This document shows positions 547 through 33,353 of a DNA stretch of 33,581 nt, piece after piece. The DNA comes from Desulfobulbaceae bacterium. GTDB lineage: Bacteria; Desulfobacterota; Desulfobulbia; Desulfobulbales; SURF-16. The notes under the pieces are model-generated. The model searched no databases. It was given only the letters and a program-made list of their open reading frames with translations, and was not told where the DNA came from. Position 1 is the stretch's first letter. Each line of letters starts with the position of its first letter. The DNA is taken from positions 1-33,581 of the forward strand of contig JANTFJ010000001.1 of assembly GCA_024763495.1 (NCBI GenBank), written 5' to 3'. The position numbers were made by a program, and so were the translations under genes.

Positions 547-726
547 CTCGGATAAACTGGAGAAGAATTAGTAAGCGTTCACCAGCACCTCATCTTTGTC
601 TATTTGGGCCGGCTTACATATTAGTCATACGTAAGCCGGGCTGATGGCGGAAAGATTAGATGCCCTGTGAGCAGTTACAATTACAGGAGTTAACGAAGTT
701 AGGACGCTTACCCCATGAGTAGTTAC
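547..726. repeat. Mosaic of MITE pieces upstream of iorA
   Basis: gataaactggagaagaatta module (551-570); C/B left end gtaagcgttcaccagcacctcatcttt (571-610); FH right arm ending gccctgtgagcagttac (611-678); inverted FH left end ending cttaccccatgagtagttac (679-726). Confidence 0.7.
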
Positions 727-797
727 AGACACCAAACCCTTTCTGACTGAAATTATACGGCACAGTCGATTTTTTCACCAGATTACAGGAGATAAAC

Positions 798-2606: not shown

Positions 2607-3193
2607 TGGAAACAAAAGGCAATATTCTCTTTTGCGGGGTTGGTGGCCAGGGCATACTTCTGGCCAGCGAAATTACTGCTTTCGCCCTGCTGGAATCAGG
2701 TATGGATGCCAAGAAAAGTGAAGTTCATGGTATGGCCCAGCGTGGCGGCTCGGTTGTCGCCCATCTACGCTATGGCAAAAAAGTCTATTCTCCCTTAATA
2801 GAACCGGGGTCAGCTGATTTTGCCATCTCATTTGAAATTATGGAAGCGGCCCGTTACCTGCCCTTTCTTCATAAAGGAAGCAAGGTAATTGTCAACACCC
2901 AACAAATTGCCCCGCCTGCAGTAGCTCTCGGCAAAATGGCTTATCCCGAAAACCTGCTTGATGAACTGAGCAATAAAGGTGTAACGGTATTTGCCATGGA
3001 TGCCTTTGCCTTAGCCCGTGAGGTGGGCGAAATCCGTACTGCCAATATAGCCTTGGTTGGTGCCCTGTCTTCTTTTCTCCCGATTGCGGAAGAAGTCTTT
3101 ATTACTGTCCTGAAAAAAAGAATACCCCGCAAACTCGAAGAAAATCTACAGGCCTTTCAACAGGGACGACAAATAACGGCTGGTGCGGCATAG
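2606..3193 (+). CDS. iorB: Indolepyruvate:ferredoxin oxidoreductase beta subunit
   Basis: 195 aa with GVGGQGILLAS loop typical of the small catalytic subunit of 2-oxoacid:ferredoxin oxidoreductases. Translationally coupled to iorA, with GGAGGA upstream. Confidence 0.85.
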   Translation: METKGNILFCGVGGQGILLASEITAFALLESGMDAKKSEVHGMAQRGGSVVAHLRYGKKVYSPLIEPGSADFAISFEIMEAARYLPFLHKGSKVIVNTQQIAPPAVALGKMAYPENLLDELSNKGVTVFAMDAFALAREVGEIRTANIALVGALSSFLPIAEEVFITVLKKRIPRKLEENLQAFQQGRQITAGAA

Positions 3194-3288
3194 AACAGGC
3201 AGCAAGGCAACGATTCACCAGGAGCTGCAAAACCTAAAAGCTCCAAAAGACAAAAATGAGGTGCCGGTGAACCTTACGGAGGAAAATT

Positions 3289-4590
3289 ATGATCTGGAAT
3301 GAAGAGTACGAAACCTTACCCAGGGAGGCGCTGGAGGCTCTGCAACTGAAAAGGCTCCAGGCCCAGGTTGAACGGGTTTATGCCTCTGTCCCCTATTATC
3401 GCGGTAAAATGGATAAAGCTGGAGTTCAGCCGGGTGACATCAAAGCCCTGACCGACATAAAAAAACTACCCTTTACCACCAAGGAAGATCTCCGCAAAAA
3501 CTACCCGTTCGGTCTCTTTACCGTGCCCCTGGAAAGGGTAGTACGTATTCACGCTTCATCCGGCACCACAGGGCAGCCAACTGTAGTAGGCTACACCAGG
3601 CGCGATATTAAAATATGGGCCGAACTCATGACTCGTTGTCTGTCTGCTGCCGGCGCCAGTCCTCAAGATATTATTCACAATGCCTATGGTTATGGCCTGT
3701 TTACCGGCGGCCTTGGCGCCCATTACGGAGCTGAAAATCTTGGGGCCACCGTTGTGCCGGTTTCAGGCGGAAATACCAAGCGGCAGATCATGATCATGCG
3801 TGACTTTAAATCAACCGTACTTCTCTGTACTCCATCATATGCCCTTAACCTGGCTGAAACCATGACGGAAATGGGGATCGACCCAAGCGAAATGGCGCTC
3901 AGGGTGGGAGTATTCGGGGCTGAACCCTGGAGCGAAAACATGCGGGAGGAAATCCAGAAAAAACTCGGAATCCAGGCCATCGACATTTATGGTCTCAGCG
4001 AAATAATCGGTCCGGGTGTGGCTATTGAATGTACTGAAGAGCAGAAAGGCCTTCATATTATGGAAGATCATTTTCTCCCTGAAATTGTTGATCGCGATAC
4101 CTTTGATCCTCTTCCTCTGGGAGAATCAGGAGAACTGGTGTTCACCACCCTTACCAAGGAGGCATTCCCGGTTATCCGCTACCGCACCAAGGATTTTTCC
4201 CGCATAATTACTGATCATTGCAGCTGCGGCCGCACTTTTTACCGGATGGAAAAAATAACCGGACGTTCTGATGACATGCTGATTATCCGGGGAGTTAATG
4301 TATTCCCCTCCCAGATTGAACATGTTTTAATGAGCATCAAGGATGTTGAGCCCCATTACCAGATTATTGTCAACCGGGAAGGATCACTTGATTCCATGGA
4401 GGTTCAGGTGGAGGTCAGTGAAGATATCTTCTCTGATGCCGTAAAAAACCTGGAAACCCTGGCAAAACAGATTCAAATAGAAATTAAAGATCTGCTTGGC
4501 GTTTCCTGTAAAATTTCACTGGTTGAGCCTAAAACCATTCAACGTAGTGAAGGCAAGGCTAAGCGGGTAATTGATAACCGGAAGATATAA
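3289..4590 (+). CDS. paaK: Phenylacetate-CoA ligase family (adenylate-forming, F390-synthetase-like)
   Basis: 433 aa with SSGTTGQPT adenylation motif, YGLSE, and [17 protein letters not shown] signature. GGAGGA RBS upstream of ATG. Confidence 0.85.
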
Positions 4591-5139: not shown

Positions 5140-5507
5140 GATAGCGCTCGATAAAGTACACCCAGGCGGCGACACCCCCTTAACGGTAAGGAATTCAGGG
5201 GCACCGACCTCCATGTGCGTGCTTCACGCCCTGCGATAATACATTGGTATATCTCAGGGTTGAAATGCGTGCGATGATACCGGAGAGGCTAAGTTATTTG
5301 TAACTGTTCAGATGTTCCTTAGATTCGAAGTCGAAGTTTATGCCCCTGTCTTGTTATGCTATCTGTTCATTCGGAGTCTCGTTCCTCGCTTACCTGTGCC
5401 TGCGCAGCATACTGGTGTTATTCAAGCAGGCTCAAATGAGCAAAGAGATAAGCACCCTCAAAAACAGGGCAGAACTCCGACTCCGTGAGGTGTCGGTGAA
5501 CGCTTAA
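5140..5507. repeat. Mosaic: family D (sense), E fragment, and inverted C/B carrying an inserted module
   Basis: D from gatagcgctcgataaagtacaccc (5140) to about 5265. gtaactgttcagatg at 5300. Inverted C/B from gttcattcggagtctcgttcctcgcttacc (about 5367) to ggtgaacgcttaa (5507), carrying the ataagcaccctcaaaaacaggg module. Confidence 0.7.
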
Positions 5508-6755: not shown

Positions 6756-6865
6756 TACTTTAAGAAGCCGGAGAGCAGATGTGATTAATCTCATCTCACT
6801 GACTCTCTTTCGCTGTTTTCAGGAGCGCCATGACCGCAAGCAGGGACAACAGAAATTTATCCTGC

Positions 6866-6903
6866 CTGATCACGGAAAGATTCGGTGCCCTGTGAGCAGT
6901 TAC
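6866..6903 (+). repeat. Solo FH right-end fragment in the livK-livH spacer
   Basis: ctgatcacggaaagattcggtgccctgtgagcagttac closely matches the right arms at 640-678, 17730-17768 and 25795-25832. Confidence 0.7.
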
Positions 6904-8908: not shown

Positions 8909-9125
8909 AGTACACCTGGACGGCGTCAACCCCATAACTGTAAGGGATTCAAGTACATCGCCATGTGCGTGCTTGACGCCCCGCGATAACACATCAGTAT
9001 ATCACAGGGATAAAAGGCTGGCACCCATACTACGGGCATAAACTTCGCTTACTAATGCTATGTAAGACAGACTTATCGCGTGCAGGTAAGCGCAGACTCC
9101 GGATGAAGTTCAGCTGAATAGTTAC
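8894..9125. repeat. Hybrid: family D 5' part fused to an E-family right half
   Basis: gatagcgctcaataaagtacacctgg... (D) runs to about 9010. Then ggctggcacccatactacgggcataaacttcgc...cagctgaatagttac, which matches 16330-16413. Confidence 0.7.
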
Positions 9126-10623: not shown

Positions 10624-10889
10624 GTAACTACTCATGGGGTAAGCGCCTTAACTTCGCTAACCCCGGTAATTGGTAAGCGTAGACTCCGTTCGGTGCCCTG
10701 TAACCAGTTACAAATACTGAGATTTGCAATCATTAGTCCCTTAGAAATTATTTTCGTGTTATTTATGGCAAGAAATCTAAAATTTTCTTTGAAATAAACA
10801 ATCTGCATCTACTGTTAAGGGACTTATCCAGAACCTTAATTTCTTTTCCAGTTTATCTGGGCTAGGTACTTACCCCCATGAGTAGTTAC
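10624..10889. mobile_element. Composite MITE filling the livF-paaK2 spacer
   Basis: About 22-bp terminal inverted repeats, gtaactactcatggggtaag and cttacccccatgagtagttac. Contains an FH unit (10624-10711) plus a passenger of about 155 bp that recurs inverted at about 25546-25735. No clear target duplication found. Confidence 0.7.
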
Positions 10890-10907: not shown

Positions 10908-12206
10908 ATGTACTGGGAAAAAGATAAAGAATGCATGGCCCGGGACGATCTTGAACAACTGCAACTTGAAAGATTACAGGCAACATTGTACAGGGTAACT
11001 ACTAATGTCCCTTTTTATAGAAAAAAATTCAGGGAGCTGCAAATAGACCCGGATGGATTCAGCTCCCTTGAAGAACTGCAGGGACTTCCCTTTACCACCA
11101 AGGATGATCTACGAAAAAATTATCCCTACGGTCTTTTTGCCGTACCCCTCAGAGATATTGTCCGGGTTCATTCATCTTCCGGGACTACCGGCACGGCAAC
11201 GGTTGTCGGCTACACCAAAAATGATATTAAAACATGGTCAAACATGACAGCCAGGGTATTGACTGCTGCCGGAGTAGGCAAGGACGATGTAGTACAGATT
11301 GCTTTTGGTTATGGTCTGTTTACCGGCGGATTCGGACTGCATTACGGAGCTGAAAGGATCGGAGCTTCGGTCATCCCTATTTCCAGTGGAAATACAAAAC
11401 GCCAGATCCAGATCATGCAGGATTTCAAAACAACCGCCCTGGTCTGCACCCCAAGTTATGGACTTCTCCTGGCTGACACCATGCAGGAAATGGACATAAA
11501 CATTAATGCTCTCGATTTACGTTTCGGACTTTTTGGCGGTGAACCATGGTCGGAGGGAATGCGGGAAGAAATCCAGAACAAACTACATATTCAGGCCACT
11601 GACAACTATGGCTTAAGTGAAGTCATGGGTCCGGGCGTAGCCGGTGAATGCCGGGAACGCCAGGGACTACATATTAATGAAGACCATTTCTTAATTGAAA
11701 TTATTAATCCCGACTCTCTGGAGCCGGCCAAACCCGGAGAAATTGGTGAAGTTGTCATTACTACCCTGACCAAGGAAGCCTTTCCGGTTATTCGCTACCG
11801 GACAAGAGACCTGACCAGAATTATTGAAGCCCCCTGTGCCTGTGGTCGCACCCTGCGTCGAATGGAGCGGGTTCTGGGCCGCACTGATGATATGTTAATA
11901 ATCAAGGGGGTAAATGTTTATCCGATGCAGATTGAAGCAGTTCTTTTTGACATTGAAGGAACAGAGCCGCATTATCAGATAGTTGTTGAAAGAGATGGCC
12001 GCCTGGACAAAATAACCGTCATGGTTGAAGTAGTTGAAGAAATATTCTTTGACCAGATGAAAAAACAACGACAGTTAGTTGATCACATCAAGAAAAGGCT
12101 GGCAGGCGAACTTGGTATTGGCATTGAAGTAAAACTGGTAGAAGAAAAGAGCCTGGAAAGATATGAGGGTAAATCCCAGCGGGTGCTTGACAAACGCAAG
12201 TTGTAA
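10908..12206 (+). CDS. paaK: Phenylacetate-CoA ligase family, second paralog
   Basis: 432 aa, colinear with 3289-4590 (roughly half to 60% identical by eye). Same SSGTTG, YGLSE and [15 protein letters not shown] motifs. AAAGGAG RBS. Confidence 0.85.
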
Positions 12207-12214
12207 AAAAAATC

Positions 12215-12337
12215 GACAGCGCTCAACAAAATACACCCGGGGCGGCGACAAGCCCATACCTGTAAAGGGGTTCAGGAACTCCGCCATGTAGGTACTCCAT
12301 GCAATACATCGGTATATCGCAGGGTTGAAGCGCGTAC
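12215..12337 (+). mobile_element. Family D MITE, sense to paaK2
   Basis: Ends gacagcgctc and gaagcgcgtac. Flanks AAAAAATC (12207-14) and ATAAAATC (12338-45) match 7/8. Starts 8 nt after the paaK2 stop. Confidence 0.7.
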
Positions 12338-12361
12338 ATAAAATCGCTCTTCTAAATATTC

Positions 12362-12685
12362 GTAAGTGTTCGCCAGCACCTCATCTTTGCCCATTTGAGC
12401 CTGCTTGAATAGCACGAGTATGCTACGCAGGCACAAATGGTAATTACTCACGGGGTAAGCACCTTAAGTTCGCTACCACCCGTAATTGTAACTGTTTACA
12501 GGATGCCGGAGATAGTCCGGTGCCGCGTATTAGTCATACGTAAACCGGGCTGATGGCGGAAAGAGGTAAGCGCAGACTCCGTTCGGTAACCTGTGAGCAG
12601 TTACCACAAATGAACAAATCTAAGGCACTGATAAAAGCTTAGAAACTTAAATGTTGCAATGATTTGCTCCCTGATGAACGGTTAC
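12362..12685 (+). mobile_element. C/B-family MITE (outer element of a nested pair)
   Basis: TIRs gtaagtgttcgccag and ctgatgaacggttac. Flanks AAATATTC (12354-61) and AAATATTG (12686-93) match 7/8. Interrupted by the element at 12440-12604. Confidence 0.85.
12440..12604 (+). mobile_element. FH-family MITE nested inside the C/B element
   Basis: Ends gtaattactcacggggtaagc and cctgtgagcagttac. Perfect 8-bp duplication CACAAATG (12432-39 and 12605-12). Confidence 0.9.
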
Positions 12686-12813
12686 AAATATTGAAATTAC
12701 GCCTTAGAATGCGAAGTTATTTTTGAGTGAACCCTTAGATCAAATCCAACTATTCGGGAACACTTGATGAGTAGGAAAATCTTCCGCACCTGTCATCGCT
12801 CAAAAGCAAGGTG

Positions 12814-13191
12814 CTAATTATCTTCATTATCCTCTTGGTAATTGACTAATTCTATAATCGCCATGGGCGCAGCATCGCCGGTACGGTTACCAGTTCTTAT
12901 TATTCTGGTATACCCACCATTACGATCCATATAACTATCTTTAATTTCATCAAAAAGCTTAGCTACTATTCTCTTATCCTGTATATATGATAATGCCTGA
13001 CGTCGAGCATGAAGATCTCCACGCTTAGCTAAAGTTATCATTTTATCAGCTACCCGCCGCAACTCCTTTGCCTTAGGTGTAGTAGTAACAATCCGCTCAT
13101 GCTCGAACAGGGACGTAACCATATTACGAAGCATGGCCCTTTTATGTGATGTTGTACGGCCAAGTCTTTTTCCTGCTACTCTATGCCTCAT
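12814..13191 (-). CDS. rplQ: 50S ribosomal protein L17
   Basis: 125 aa, [24 protein letters not shown]... Last gene of the alpha operon. Confidence 0.95.
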
Positions 13192-16239: not shown

Positions 16240-16413
16240 GTAACTATTCACGTAGGGGCGAAAAACTGCCCAAACCACCGACCTGTAACTGTTCAGATGT
16301 GCTTTAGCTGTGCATGATAAGGCTGGCACCCATACTACGGGCATAAACTTCGCATACTAATGCTATGTAAGACAGACTTATCGCGTGCAGATGAAGTGCA
16401 GCTGATTAGTTAC
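16240..16413 (+). mobile_element. E-family MITE
   Basis: Ends gtaactattcacgtagg and gtgcagctgattagttac. Flanks ATTAAAAC (16232-39) and ATTAAAAA (16414-21) match 7/8. Relatives at 17985-18162 and, inverted, at about 33179-33353. Confidence 0.8.
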
Positions 16414-17645: not shown

Positions 17646-17768
17646 GTAAATACTCATGGGGTAACGTCCTAACTTCGCTAACCCCTGTAATTGTAACTGG
17701 TTACAGGGTGCTAACCATACGTAAGCCTAACTGATCGCGGAAATATGCGGTGCCCTGTGAGCAGTTAC
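17646..17768 (+). mobile_element. FH-family MITE
   Basis: Ends gtaaatactcatggggtaacg and ggtgccctgtgagcagttac. Perfect duplication CCATTTAT (17638-45 and 17769-76). Confidence 0.9.
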
Positions 17769-17801: not shown

Positions 17802-17973
17802 GTAACTACTCACAGGGCACAGGATCCGTAGTATCGGAAACTCGCTTACCTGTTCATTCAGGAGTGCGAAGTGTAGTTGTGCCATCGAGCAGGCCTACAT
17901 GGGCGAAGAGGTAAGCACCCTGAAAAACAGGGGGCATAAACTAAGACTCCGTGTGGTTCAGCTGAATAGTTAC
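17802..17973. repeat. Hybrid-ended MITE (inverted FH arm on the left, E end on the right)
   Basis: Left end gtaactactcacagggcac, right end ggttcagctgaatagttac. Interior resembles inverted C/B and carries the gtaagcaccctgaaaaacaggg module. The flanks do not match. Confidence 0.6.
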
Positions 17974-17984
17974 TCATTTTTTAT

Positions 17985-18162
17985 GTAACTATTCAGGTAG
18001 CGGGCAAAAAACTGCCGCAACAACCGCACCGACCTGTAACTGATCAGAGGTAAGCGAACAAAGTGAGAATCCGTGTGCTTTAGCTGTGCGTAAGGCTGGC
18101 GCAGCATATTAATATGTAGACAGCCTGATCCTGCGCAGATGAAGTGCAACTGAACAGTTATC
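17985..18162 (+). mobile_element. E-family MITE next to the map stop codon
   Basis: Ends gtaactattcaggtagcggg and gtgcaactgaacagttatc. Flanks TTTTTTAT (17977-84) and ATTTTTAT (18163-70) match 7/8, but they are low complexity and therefore weak evidence. Confidence 0.65.
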
Positions 18163-19184: not shown

Positions 19185-19359
19185 GTAAGCGTTCACCAGC
19201 ACCTCATCTTTGCCAATTTGAGGCTGCTTGAATAGCACCTTATGCTGCGCAGGCACAAGTAAGCGAGTAACACGAGACTCCGAATGAAATATCTAAGGCA
19301 CGGGTAATCGCTTAGAGATTTAAATGTTTCAAAGATTTGCTCCCTGGTGAGCCCCTAAC
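19185..19359 (+). mobile_element. C/B-family MITE abutting the secY stop codon
   Basis: Left TIR gtaagcgttcaccag; right end is degenerate (ctggtgagcccctaac). Flanks TAATACCT (19177-84) and TACTACCT (19360-67) match 7/8. The right copy contains the secY stop. Confidence 0.8.
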
Positions 19360-25520: not shown

Positions 25521-25832
25521 GTAACTACTCATGGGTGGTAAGCTCCTAGCCCAGATAAACTGGAAGAGAAATTAAGGCTCTGGATAAGTCCCTTAACAGT
25601 AGATGCAAGTTGTTTATTTCAAAGAAATTTTTCAATTTCTTGCCACTCTTTTCAGTACCCCCTTGAGGGGTGTAAAAAGCACCAAAATTAATTCTAAGGG
25701 ACTAATGGTTACAAATCTCTGTATTTTTAAGTGGTTACAGGTGCCGTAGATTTTTGTCATCAGCCCGGTGCTGCCAAGTAATACGTAAAACATGCTGATG
25801 GCGGTAATATGCGGTGCCCTGTGAGCAGTTAC
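25521..25832 (+). mobile_element. 312-bp composite FH MITE with passenger modules
   Basis: Ends gtaactactcatgggtggtaagc and ggtgccctgtgagcagttac. Perfect duplication GAACTATC (25513-20 and 25833-40). The interior is an inverted copy of the 10712-10866 passenger plus module K. Confidence 0.9.
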
Positions 25833-26943: not shown

Positions 26944-27114
26944 GTAAGCGTTCACCAGCACCTCATCTTTGCCCATTTGAGCCTGCTTGAATAGCACCAG
27001 CACCAGTATGCAGCGCAGGAACAGGTAAGCGAGGAACGAGACTCCGAATGAACAAATTGGTAAACGCTTAGAGTCTTAAATGTTGCAAAGAATTACTCCC
27101 TGGTGAACGGTTAC
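26944..27114 (+). mobile_element. C/B-family MITE, best-preserved copy
   Basis: 15-bp TIRs gtaagcgttcaccag and ctggtgaacggttac. Perfect duplication TGAAAACC (26936-43 and 27115-22). Confidence 0.92.
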
Positions 27115-28667: not shown

Positions 28668-28782
28668 AGCTTTTTAACTCCTGGCTTAACCGGATAAAAG
28701 TAAGAGAAGTAATAATATTATATATTTTCTCTTCTATATTTAAACTTTTATCGCTTAACGCATTTTCATTAATCGAAGATTT

Positions 28783-28936
28783 GTAACCGTTCACCGGGGC
28801 TTCTTGTTTACTTATAACTCCAGCCTGTAGGCATTCTCCAGTGTCTTAGATTAAGTTCATTGGAGGTCTCTGTGCTGCATACTGGTGCTTGTAAGCAGGC
28901 CCAGATGAACAAAAATGAGGTTCTGGTGAAACTTAC
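28783..28936 (-). mobile_element. C/B-family MITE, inverted, diverged
   Basis: Ends gtaaccgttcaccgggg and ttctggtgaaacttac. Perfect duplication GAAGATTT (28775-82 and 28937-44). Confidence 0.9.
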
Positions 28937-29039
28937 GAAGATTTCATCAGGCAGGGACGGCTGGCTGAACATCAGCTTCCCAGGCCCATCATATATCTAT
29001 TACATATAGAGCCCCTTTGCCAGTGATATCAATTATCCT

Positions 29040-33131: not shown

Positions 33132-33353
33132 GTAACTACTCATGGGGTAAGCACCTAATGATTGCAAATCTAACTATTTATAACTATCCAGCTGCACTTC
33201 ATCTGGGGGCGATAATGCTGTCTTATATAGCATTCTGCGCCAGGCTTATCACACACATCTAAAGCACACGGAGTCTCACTTCGTTCGCTTAACTCTGAAT
33301 AATTACTAAACAGTGGTTGTGACAGTTTTTCGCCCCCGACCTGAATCGGTAAT
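33132..33353. repeat. Hybrid: FH left end fused to an inverted E-family element
   Basis: gtaactactcatggggtaagcacctaatgattgcaaatc..., then ataactatccagctgcacttcatctg...cagtttttcgcccccgacctgaatcggtaat. The second part is colinear with the reverse complement of 16240-16413. Confidence 0.6.

Follow-up and report, generated by a model that had tools for sequence, protein, structure and literature searches.

The 607-nt spacer between the convergent genes paaK (phenylacetate-CoA-ligase-type, end at 12206) and rplQ (end at 12814) raises the question of whether one MITE was truly inserted into another, in which order the two arrived, and what the short block is that other copies of the outer element carry at the same point. 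The window, i.e., the whole stretch of 33,581 nt that was analysed, has a G+C content of 42% and originates from hydrothermal-vent metagenomes. Non-coding mobile DNA nested to three levels was observed in the spacer: a very small element, designated X, lies inside the MITE FH, which lies inside the MITE C/B. The account in which C/B arrived first, FH followed, and X was carried in FH as a member of a separate very small insertion family is assigned a probability of roughly 0.85.

All features of the locus are described on the forward strand. The left C/B target duplication AAATATTC (12354-12361) is followed by the left part of C/B (12362-12439, consensus positions 1-78), which begins with the tip GTAAGTGTTCGCCAG and includes the left CACAAATG at 12432-12439. 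FH occupies 12440-12604 (165 nt), and its ends GTAATTACTCACGGGG and CCTGTGAGCAGTTAC form an imperfect inverted repeat. The right FH target duplication, again CACAAATG (12605-12612), opens the right part of C/B (12605-12685, positions 71-151 by alignment to the consensus), which closes with the tip CTGATGAACGGTTAC and is followed by the right C/B target duplication AAATATTG (12686-12693, read directly). The two copies of CACAAATG match in 8 of 8 positions, for which the chance is about 1.5e-5 per fixed pair, and the two C/B flanks match in 7 of 8 (AAATATT-C/G). Compared with the 158-nt FH consensus, the FH copy at the locus has a 10-nt internal deletion and a 17-nt insert. This insert, on which the first-pass annotation had not remarked, is X in its 17-nt form (GGTAAGCGCAGACTCCG, 12565-12581), placed at FH consensus position 135 (AAAGA^TTCGG, the caret marking the insertion point), and FH copies lacking it are found at 6848-6903, 17713-17768 and 25777-25832.

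The spacer consists almost entirely of repeats: a D-type element (about 12215-12345) comes first, C/B with its FH next, and directly to the right of C/B a repeat at 12687-12743. The last is itself very high in copy number, with a summed word depth of about 2e5 (run X1) against about 62 for the unique flanks. A scan of the spacer for intrinsic terminators gave no match, nor did a search of the whole window against Rfam at gathering thresholds.

The C/B consensus was built from four 151-nt copies with perfect 8-bp flanking duplications, and it contains a single CACAAATG, at positions 71-78. The C/B copy at the locus, whose parts are 93% identical to this consensus, differs from it by one 173-nt insert, which corresponds to FH (165 nt) plus 8 nt, and removal of FH and one CACAAATG restores the C/B consensus exactly. 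Further copies were collected by a scan of genome contigs with a C/B-internal pattern, which gave 49 loci, of which 43 belong to the MAG Desulfobulbaceae bacterium bin10037. The organism of this MAG is related to that of the window but distinct from it, a shared 2.4-kb gene region being 83% identical between the two, and the C/B copy counts given here are those of this relative and not of the window's own genome. The empty site GCAGGCACAAATGAACAAATCTAAGG, with one CACAAATG, was found in 17 of its C/B copies, which read ...GCAGGCACAAATGAAC[A/G]AATCTAAGG..., in full GCAGGCACA-AATGAAC[A/G]AATCTAAGG. In addition, Logan contigs from three of four runs (X2-X4) join 12431 to 12605 with 8 ambiguous letters, at 80% likeness.

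The filled site was also covered on its right side. An 84-nt Logan contig of run X1 spans 12590-12673 at 98% likeness and contains the last 15 nt of FH, CACAAATG and C/B interior, and its depth of 60 equals that of the unique flanks. No Logan contig covered the left junction (12418-12448), and such contigs show presence, not absence. Both families duplicate their targets elsewhere, since at least 11 copies of C/B and at least 9 of FH lie between perfect 8-bp duplications, the octamers being unrelated and mostly A+T-rich. The true nested insertion of FH in C/B, with C/B first and FH second at this locus, is thereby confirmed. All three insertions have defined boundaries, and an empty site was found for each.

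The first-pass annotation had placed C/B at 12362-12685 and FH at 12440-12604 between named flanks, and direct reading agrees with it to the base. Its description of both target duplications as intact holds for FH but not quite for C/B, where one of the eight positions differs. It had predicted C/B copies without the insert, of a given sequence, and these are the 17 copies in the related MAG. It had also named the observation that would overturn its reading, namely that the duplicated CACAAATG belonged to the C/B consensus; because the consensus holds only one and the empty-site copies agree, that objection falls away. The order it gave, C/B and then FH, stands for the copy at the locus but not for the families overall, since C/B is found inside FH in the relative and the order at the locus is therefore uninformative for the families as a whole. 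Its suggestion that FH transposed recently is compatible with the perfect octamer, although its support is weak, since no date can be drawn from as few as 8 bp.

Two other origins of the nested arrangement were weighed. If the arrangement were a metagenome assembly chimera of high-copy repeats from different loci, the extreme abundance of these repeats in the runs (summed word depth about 2e5 versus about 62 for unique sequence) would be in keeping with it, as would the frequent ending of contigs inside them, both in the runs and in the related MAG, and the uncovered left FH junction. However, a chimera joins through long shared words and would not yield a complete FH bounded by an exact 8-bp duplication internal to C/B, and the right junction is present as the run X1 contig at single-copy depth. 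The structure is therefore treated as real, and assembly error is considered extremely improbable. Recombination between mosaic repeat families, which would have joined C/B and FH without transposition of FH, is likewise judged highly improbable: hybrids do exist, at window positions 558-730 and in the locus L017, but an 8-bp duplication flanking an entire element that retains its two inverted ends is not a product of recombination, the removal of FH and one CACAAATG gives the C/B consensus exactly, and 8-bp duplications accompany transposition in both families. Transposition of FH into C/B remains the preferred reading.

The ends of the C/B consensus are GTAAGCGTTCACCAG and CTGGTGAACGGTTAC, with inverted repeats starting GTAAGCG, and those of FH are GTAACTACTCATGGGG and CCCTGTGAGCAGTTAC; the inverted repeats of FH and of the E-type MITEs start GTAAC. 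Ends starting GTAAGCG and an 8-bp target duplication are the hallmarks of the IS66 family (PMC11946415). Inverted repeats starting GTAAGCG or GTAA and 8-bp duplications were found in both C/B and FH, and on these features both are classified as putative IS66-type MITEs. They resemble the IS66-family insertion sequences and their MITE derivatives in the GTAAGCG/GTAAC starts, the 8-bp duplication, the small non-coding form and the many intergenic copies, and differ from them in that no autonomous tnpA/B/C partner was seen in the 0.9 Mb of fetched loci and in their unusually high density, the spacer being almost all repeats. A search of the same 0.9 Mb for an autonomous IS66 element gave no matching ends separated by 0.7-4 kb and flanked by a duplication.

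Nested MITE insertions are common in plant genomes and have been reported in cyanobacteria. The present case is like them in that one MITE lies in another, both duplications are recognisable and a local order of events can be read, and unlike them in having three levels, the innermost a 17-nt element of a different kind, and in the reciprocal nesting of the same two families in the relative. The nesting of MITEs as such is routine, well-documented transposon stratigraphy, and here it confirms only that the periods in which two IS66-type MITE families were active overlapped in this lineage. The reverse nesting was observed in L028 (JANTGB010000040.1, reverse strand 3044-3400), where a 193-nt C/B with three X copies and the duplication CGTCGCAG lies inside an FH flanked by CTGGAGTT. 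The MITE copies are more alike between the window organism and the relative than the shared gene region is, C/B copies being 93-96% identical to the relative's consensus and one FH left half matching in 70 of 72 positions, versus 83% for the gene region.

X has fixed 8-nt ends, GGTAAGCG ... AGACTCCG, around a variable centre of 1, 7-9 or 24-27 nt, which gives length classes of 17, 23, 24, 25 and 40-43 nt with the same ends in all. It has one orientation and no inverted ends, makes no duplication, and stands directly after (G)CA and before a purine. The usual centre is a mini-hairpin with a 2-bp stem and a 3-nt loop, the loops being mostly GNA or ANA. In a set of 29 distinct forms of 25 nt, 86% of cells show pairing between columns 10 and 16 and between columns 11 and 15, as CG, GC, AU or UG. 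The covariation score is 0.686 versus 0.211 in shuffles, none of 500 shuffles scored as high, and the signal was lost when the partner columns were slid. Pairing of the outer arms was unsupported, with only 4-5 double changes and mostly single pair-breaking changes, and X folded alone as DNA by nearest-neighbour parameters gave no stable structure (about 0 kcal/mol). The 17-nt form lacks the hairpin, yet it occurs in many contexts.

The first-pass annotation had seen a short block in other C/B copies at the point where FH is inserted here, and such blocks of 23-25 nt are indeed present at 19258-19282, at 27024-27046 and, on the reverse strand, at 5372-5394. Its view of this point as a recurrent insertion or exchange site was right in spirit, but the block is an independent tiny element, X, with a target of its own. 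The first of these is a 25-nt X (AGTAAGCGAGTAACACGAGACTCCG, forward strand) and occupies site c in a C/B that spans approximately 19185-19359. The second is a 23-nt X at site c of a sister C/B (26944-27114, forward strand) with the perfect duplication TGAAAACC. The third, also 23 nt, is at site c of a truncated inverted C/B, in which a 38-nt relative of the long form then follows at site d.

Further copies were found in the window. A 17-nt X in an E-type MITE (9085-9101, forward strand) distinguishes 9014-9101 from the sister copy 16319-16412, the 72 nt upstream (9014-9085 versus 16319-16390) being 99% identical, and another 17-nt X lies in a short (88-nt) FH derivative (10672-10688, forward strand). 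The left end of an E-type MITE contains a 25-nt X (TCAGA^TGTGC) at 18049-18073 on the forward strand, and the same site is filled by a 25-nt X in a copy of opposite orientation, at 33269-33293 on the reverse strand; it is empty at 16286-16325. The long form is represented by the 42-nt GGTAAGCACCCTGAAAAACAGGGGGCATAAACTAAGACTCCG at 17910-17951 on the forward strand.

In C/B copies with 96-98% identity to the consensus, the number of X copies ranges from 0 to 4, at four fixed sites: positions 22 and 35-37 in reversed and 74 and 82 in forward orientation. All four are filled in one 223-nt copy. The target at site c is ACA^AAT, and the second central site lies 8 nt downstream. For the central sites in the relative, neither was occupied in 17 copies, site c in 15, site d in 3 and both in 6, and in 2 further copies two X copies have seemingly recombined there. 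X variants at site b sometimes share one odd flank change, and some of the X diversity therefore arose in place and not by separate insertions.

X was also found at several other positions in FH and in arrays of up to seven 25-nt units. Tandem arrays of 3-7 units were observed in L043 (87-260) and also in L024, L021, L028, L042, L045, L049 and L027. In the arrays of bin10037 the internal units end in CTCCA and the last in CTCCG, and each junction therefore recreates a CA^GG target; other arrays have C or no spacer base at the junction. X can also be inserted into itself: in two contigs a 24-nt X carries a reversed X-like insert in its loop, at the target GCA^AGC on the strand of the insert.

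Insertion into coding sequence was observed in the IS91-type transposase genes of two contigs, and its position differs between them. In L115, YLDCGILHNGF|ARVKCEDC is split by a 25-nt X, and in L094 a 23-nt X lies between positions 57 and 60 of the Pfam profile Zn_Tnp_IS91. The zinc-binding domain is thus interrupted by X, with profile positions 35-57 before it and 60-90 after it, and both insertions are frameshifts. The same X-bearing gene in L094 also has an unrelated 20-nt insertion, ACCGCGAAAAGCACACTATT (349-372), between the conserved IQSF and GD(Y/F), which occurs only once in the 0.9 Mb fetched. Outside these two genes X lies at the edges of stop-free stretches and is therefore intergenic. 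That X inserts into sequence unrelated to the MITEs is settled by the self-nesting and by these two genes.

A scan for the 23-25-nt forms placed X in at least 120 metagenome contigs, whose G+C spans 0.36 to 0.63 and whose flanks are for the most part unrelated. X is also carried by 3 predicted viral contigs. Its hosts are Desulfobulbaceae and sediment and vent metagenome contigs, and it is widespread in both habitats. In 135 distinct metagenome contexts among the matches listed, position -1 is A in 91%, position -2 is C in 76% and position +1 is A or G in 93%, with exact junctions. One 40-kb contig classed as viral (L003/L174, IMGVR_UViG_3300037247_002436) has several X copies in a palindromic repeat with GATGGC... 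ends.

X is probably a true insertion element of some kind. In favour of the alternative, that it is an ancestral part of C/B and other MITEs that was deleted in some copies, one window copy (28765-28965, reverse strand) has a partial block, AGACCTCCA, at site c; the flank change common to the site-b variants likewise points to single events followed by change in place. Against this, the same ends occur in more than 130 unrelated contexts, including another X and IS91-type coding sequence whose Pfam domain continues in the flanks, the absences are exact to the base at many sites, and the shared (G)CA^R junction is expected of targeted insertion and not of deletion. Ancestral presence with loss is therefore considered very unlikely. 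Movement of X by an IS66 transposase, as an extreme IS66 miniature, is also improbable. After its first G, X starts GTAAGCG as IS66 inverted repeats do, and most copies lie inside IS66-type MITEs, but it lacks an inverted repeat, its right end reading CGGAGTCT as the reverse complement, and leaves no 8-bp duplication, and its (G)CA^R target was not seen at the midpoints of the MITE duplications. On the first two of these grounds the candidate of an IS66 micro-MITE was rejected, and X is treated below as an insertion element separate from the MITEs that carry it.

At the C/B site where both X and FH have been inserted, the X insertion point (CACA|AATG) is the exact midpoint of the octamer duplicated by FH, a coincidence with a chance of about 3% given four X sites in 151 nt. 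C/B contains an internal palindrome (CATTTGAGCCTGC versus GCAGGCACAAATG); site c is situated in one of its arms, and a reversed X is found at the mirror position in the other. A structural hotspot shared by X and FH is possible. The preference of X for MITEs may reflect single-stranded or hairpin-prone DNA, or equally its survival only in dispensable DNA.

The hybrid at window positions 558-730 consists of the C/B left end joined to parts of FH. In its counterpart in L017 (positions 1-260, corresponding to 545-780 of the window), the left half of C/B runs as far as CACA and is followed by a 25-nt X, which leads into FH interior (GGAGATTTTTGTCATC...). The join falls exactly at X, suggesting recombination between X copies in different MITE families. 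X may thus serve as portable homology, which would explain the hybrid MITEs.

A text search of the literature with the X ends returned nothing relevant, and no description of X was found. To our knowledge, the case for mobile elements far below 50 nt in length has essentially been made once, for Nostoc. The SDR4-6 repeats of the Nostocaceae, reportedly treated by Elhai et al. in 2008, are said to be very small (~20-27 nt) dispersed repeats that are thought to be mobile, are sometimes tandem and have preferred insertion sites. The SDRs are described second-hand in PMC2884548 and PMC5861425, and according to the latter no SDR was found in cyanobacteria outside the Nostocaceae. Compared by these second-hand descriptions, X is likewise very small, dispersed, sometimes tandem and thought to be mobile, with preferred insertion sites, and the SDR-type pattern of a unit of ~21-27 nt that is dispersed, present or absent in otherwise identical sequence and sometimes tandem was found for X. 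By the same descriptions, X differs in its hosts (Desulfobulbaceae and sediment and vent bacteria), its lengths of 17-43 nt, its fixed ends and its (G)CA^R target. The Nostocaceae small dispersed repeats would then be its closest analogue, by description only, and X would belong to a barely explored kind.

The REP/REPIN-RAYT system and the gene-less IS200/IS605 derivatives share with X the lack of inverted ends and of a duplication, the fixed orientation, the short fixed neighbour sequence and a conserved hairpin. Like IS200/IS605, X was found to insert in a fixed orientation on the 3' side of a short invariant sequence, with neither a duplication nor inverted ends. REP elements form long, G+C-rich hairpins headed by GTAG, and the ends of IS200/IS605 require a pair of hairpins and roughly 100 nt. 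In contrast, the stem of X has at most 2 bp and is missing in the 17-nt form, and no RAYT or TnpA gene is linked to X in the fetched loci. Instead of an imperfect palindrome of ~20-40 nt with a GTAG head, X has support only for the 2-bp stem and 3-nt loop, and instead of subterminal hairpins at both ends and a TnpA it has one central mini-hairpin at most.

X is also similar to BOX (boxA-boxBn-boxC), BIME and the neisserial NIME/dRS3 in being a short module that varies in tandem number within a larger repeat, as in the arrays of up to 7 in FH, and in being common to several repeat families and located at hybrid junctions, as in L017. Unlike these modules, X inserts alone into unrelated sequence, including genes; we know of no such lone insertion for BOX, BIME or NIME/dRS3.

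For the locus, the following course of events explains the observations best. C/B, a 151-nt IS66-type MITE, inserted in the spacer and duplicated 8 bp (AAATATT-C/G). FH, a second IS66-type MITE, then entered the middle of C/B by ordinary cut- or copy-and-paste with an 8-bp staggered cut, duplicating CACAAATG, and this FH copy carries the 17-nt X of the separate very small family. The presumed agent of X movement is a trans-acting enzyme that recognises the short ends and the mini-hairpin and would most likely act on single-stranded DNA in an HUH-like manner (IS200/IS605, RAYT or IS91-like). HUH enzymes of these types insert without a duplication beside a short fixed sequence. The hairpin is tiny, which counts against such a mechanism, and it is absent from the 17-nt X, which fits poorly with hairpin-dependent HUH enzymes; by analogy an HUH-like single-strand mechanism is a possibility that we consider less likely than not. 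Clustering of the ORFs of the fetched loci gave no linked X enzyme, the recurrent genes being only ordinary signalling and ABC families, and no recurrent Y1 gene; only the IS91-type Y2 gene appeared, as a target of X. In the 0.9 Mb fetched, no long parent element with X ends was found beyond 43 nt with clean ends.

As a tentative proposal, to which we would give slightly less than even odds, X may represent an undescribed, widespread class of ultra-small mobile DNA (17-43 nt, bounded by fixed ends of 8 nt, in some forms with a GNA-type mini-hairpin, and inserting precisely at (G)CA^R without a duplication) that parasitises other mobile elements and itself, may drive the recombination that forms hybrid MITEs by spreading identical homologies of 17-25 nt among unrelated MITE families, and is mobilised by an enzyme of possibly new activity. 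X offers a far richer data set than the Nostoc case, with fixed ends across base compositions, a clear target rule, exact empty and filled pairs, insertions in a conserved protein domain, self-nesting and tandem growth. Phylogenetic profiling for an enzyme that travels with X, and cleavage and joining on short synthetic substrates, thereby become directly testable. In practical terms, short-read assemblies of the carrier organisms are broken by these elements, and the frameshifts that they create will be read by annotators as pseudogenes.

Related MITEs were also observed in other contigs. The metagenome contigs L066, L060, L100 and L120, with G+C of 0.54-0.63, have a G+C-rich MITE family homologous to FH, with ends GTAAGCGCTCTCAGGGG...CCCTGTGAGCGCTTAC, in which X is present or absent at the same relative site as in the FH of the window (AAAGA^TGCGGT) and at others. 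A Flavobacteriaceae bin (L019) and a Calditrichaceae bin (L034) of one study each contain a C/B copy, the two agreeing in their flanks (GGATATTA/GTTTACAG) and in the X variant at site c, and the occurrence in these two unrelated MAGs probably reflects a mis-binned Desulfobulbaceae fragment.
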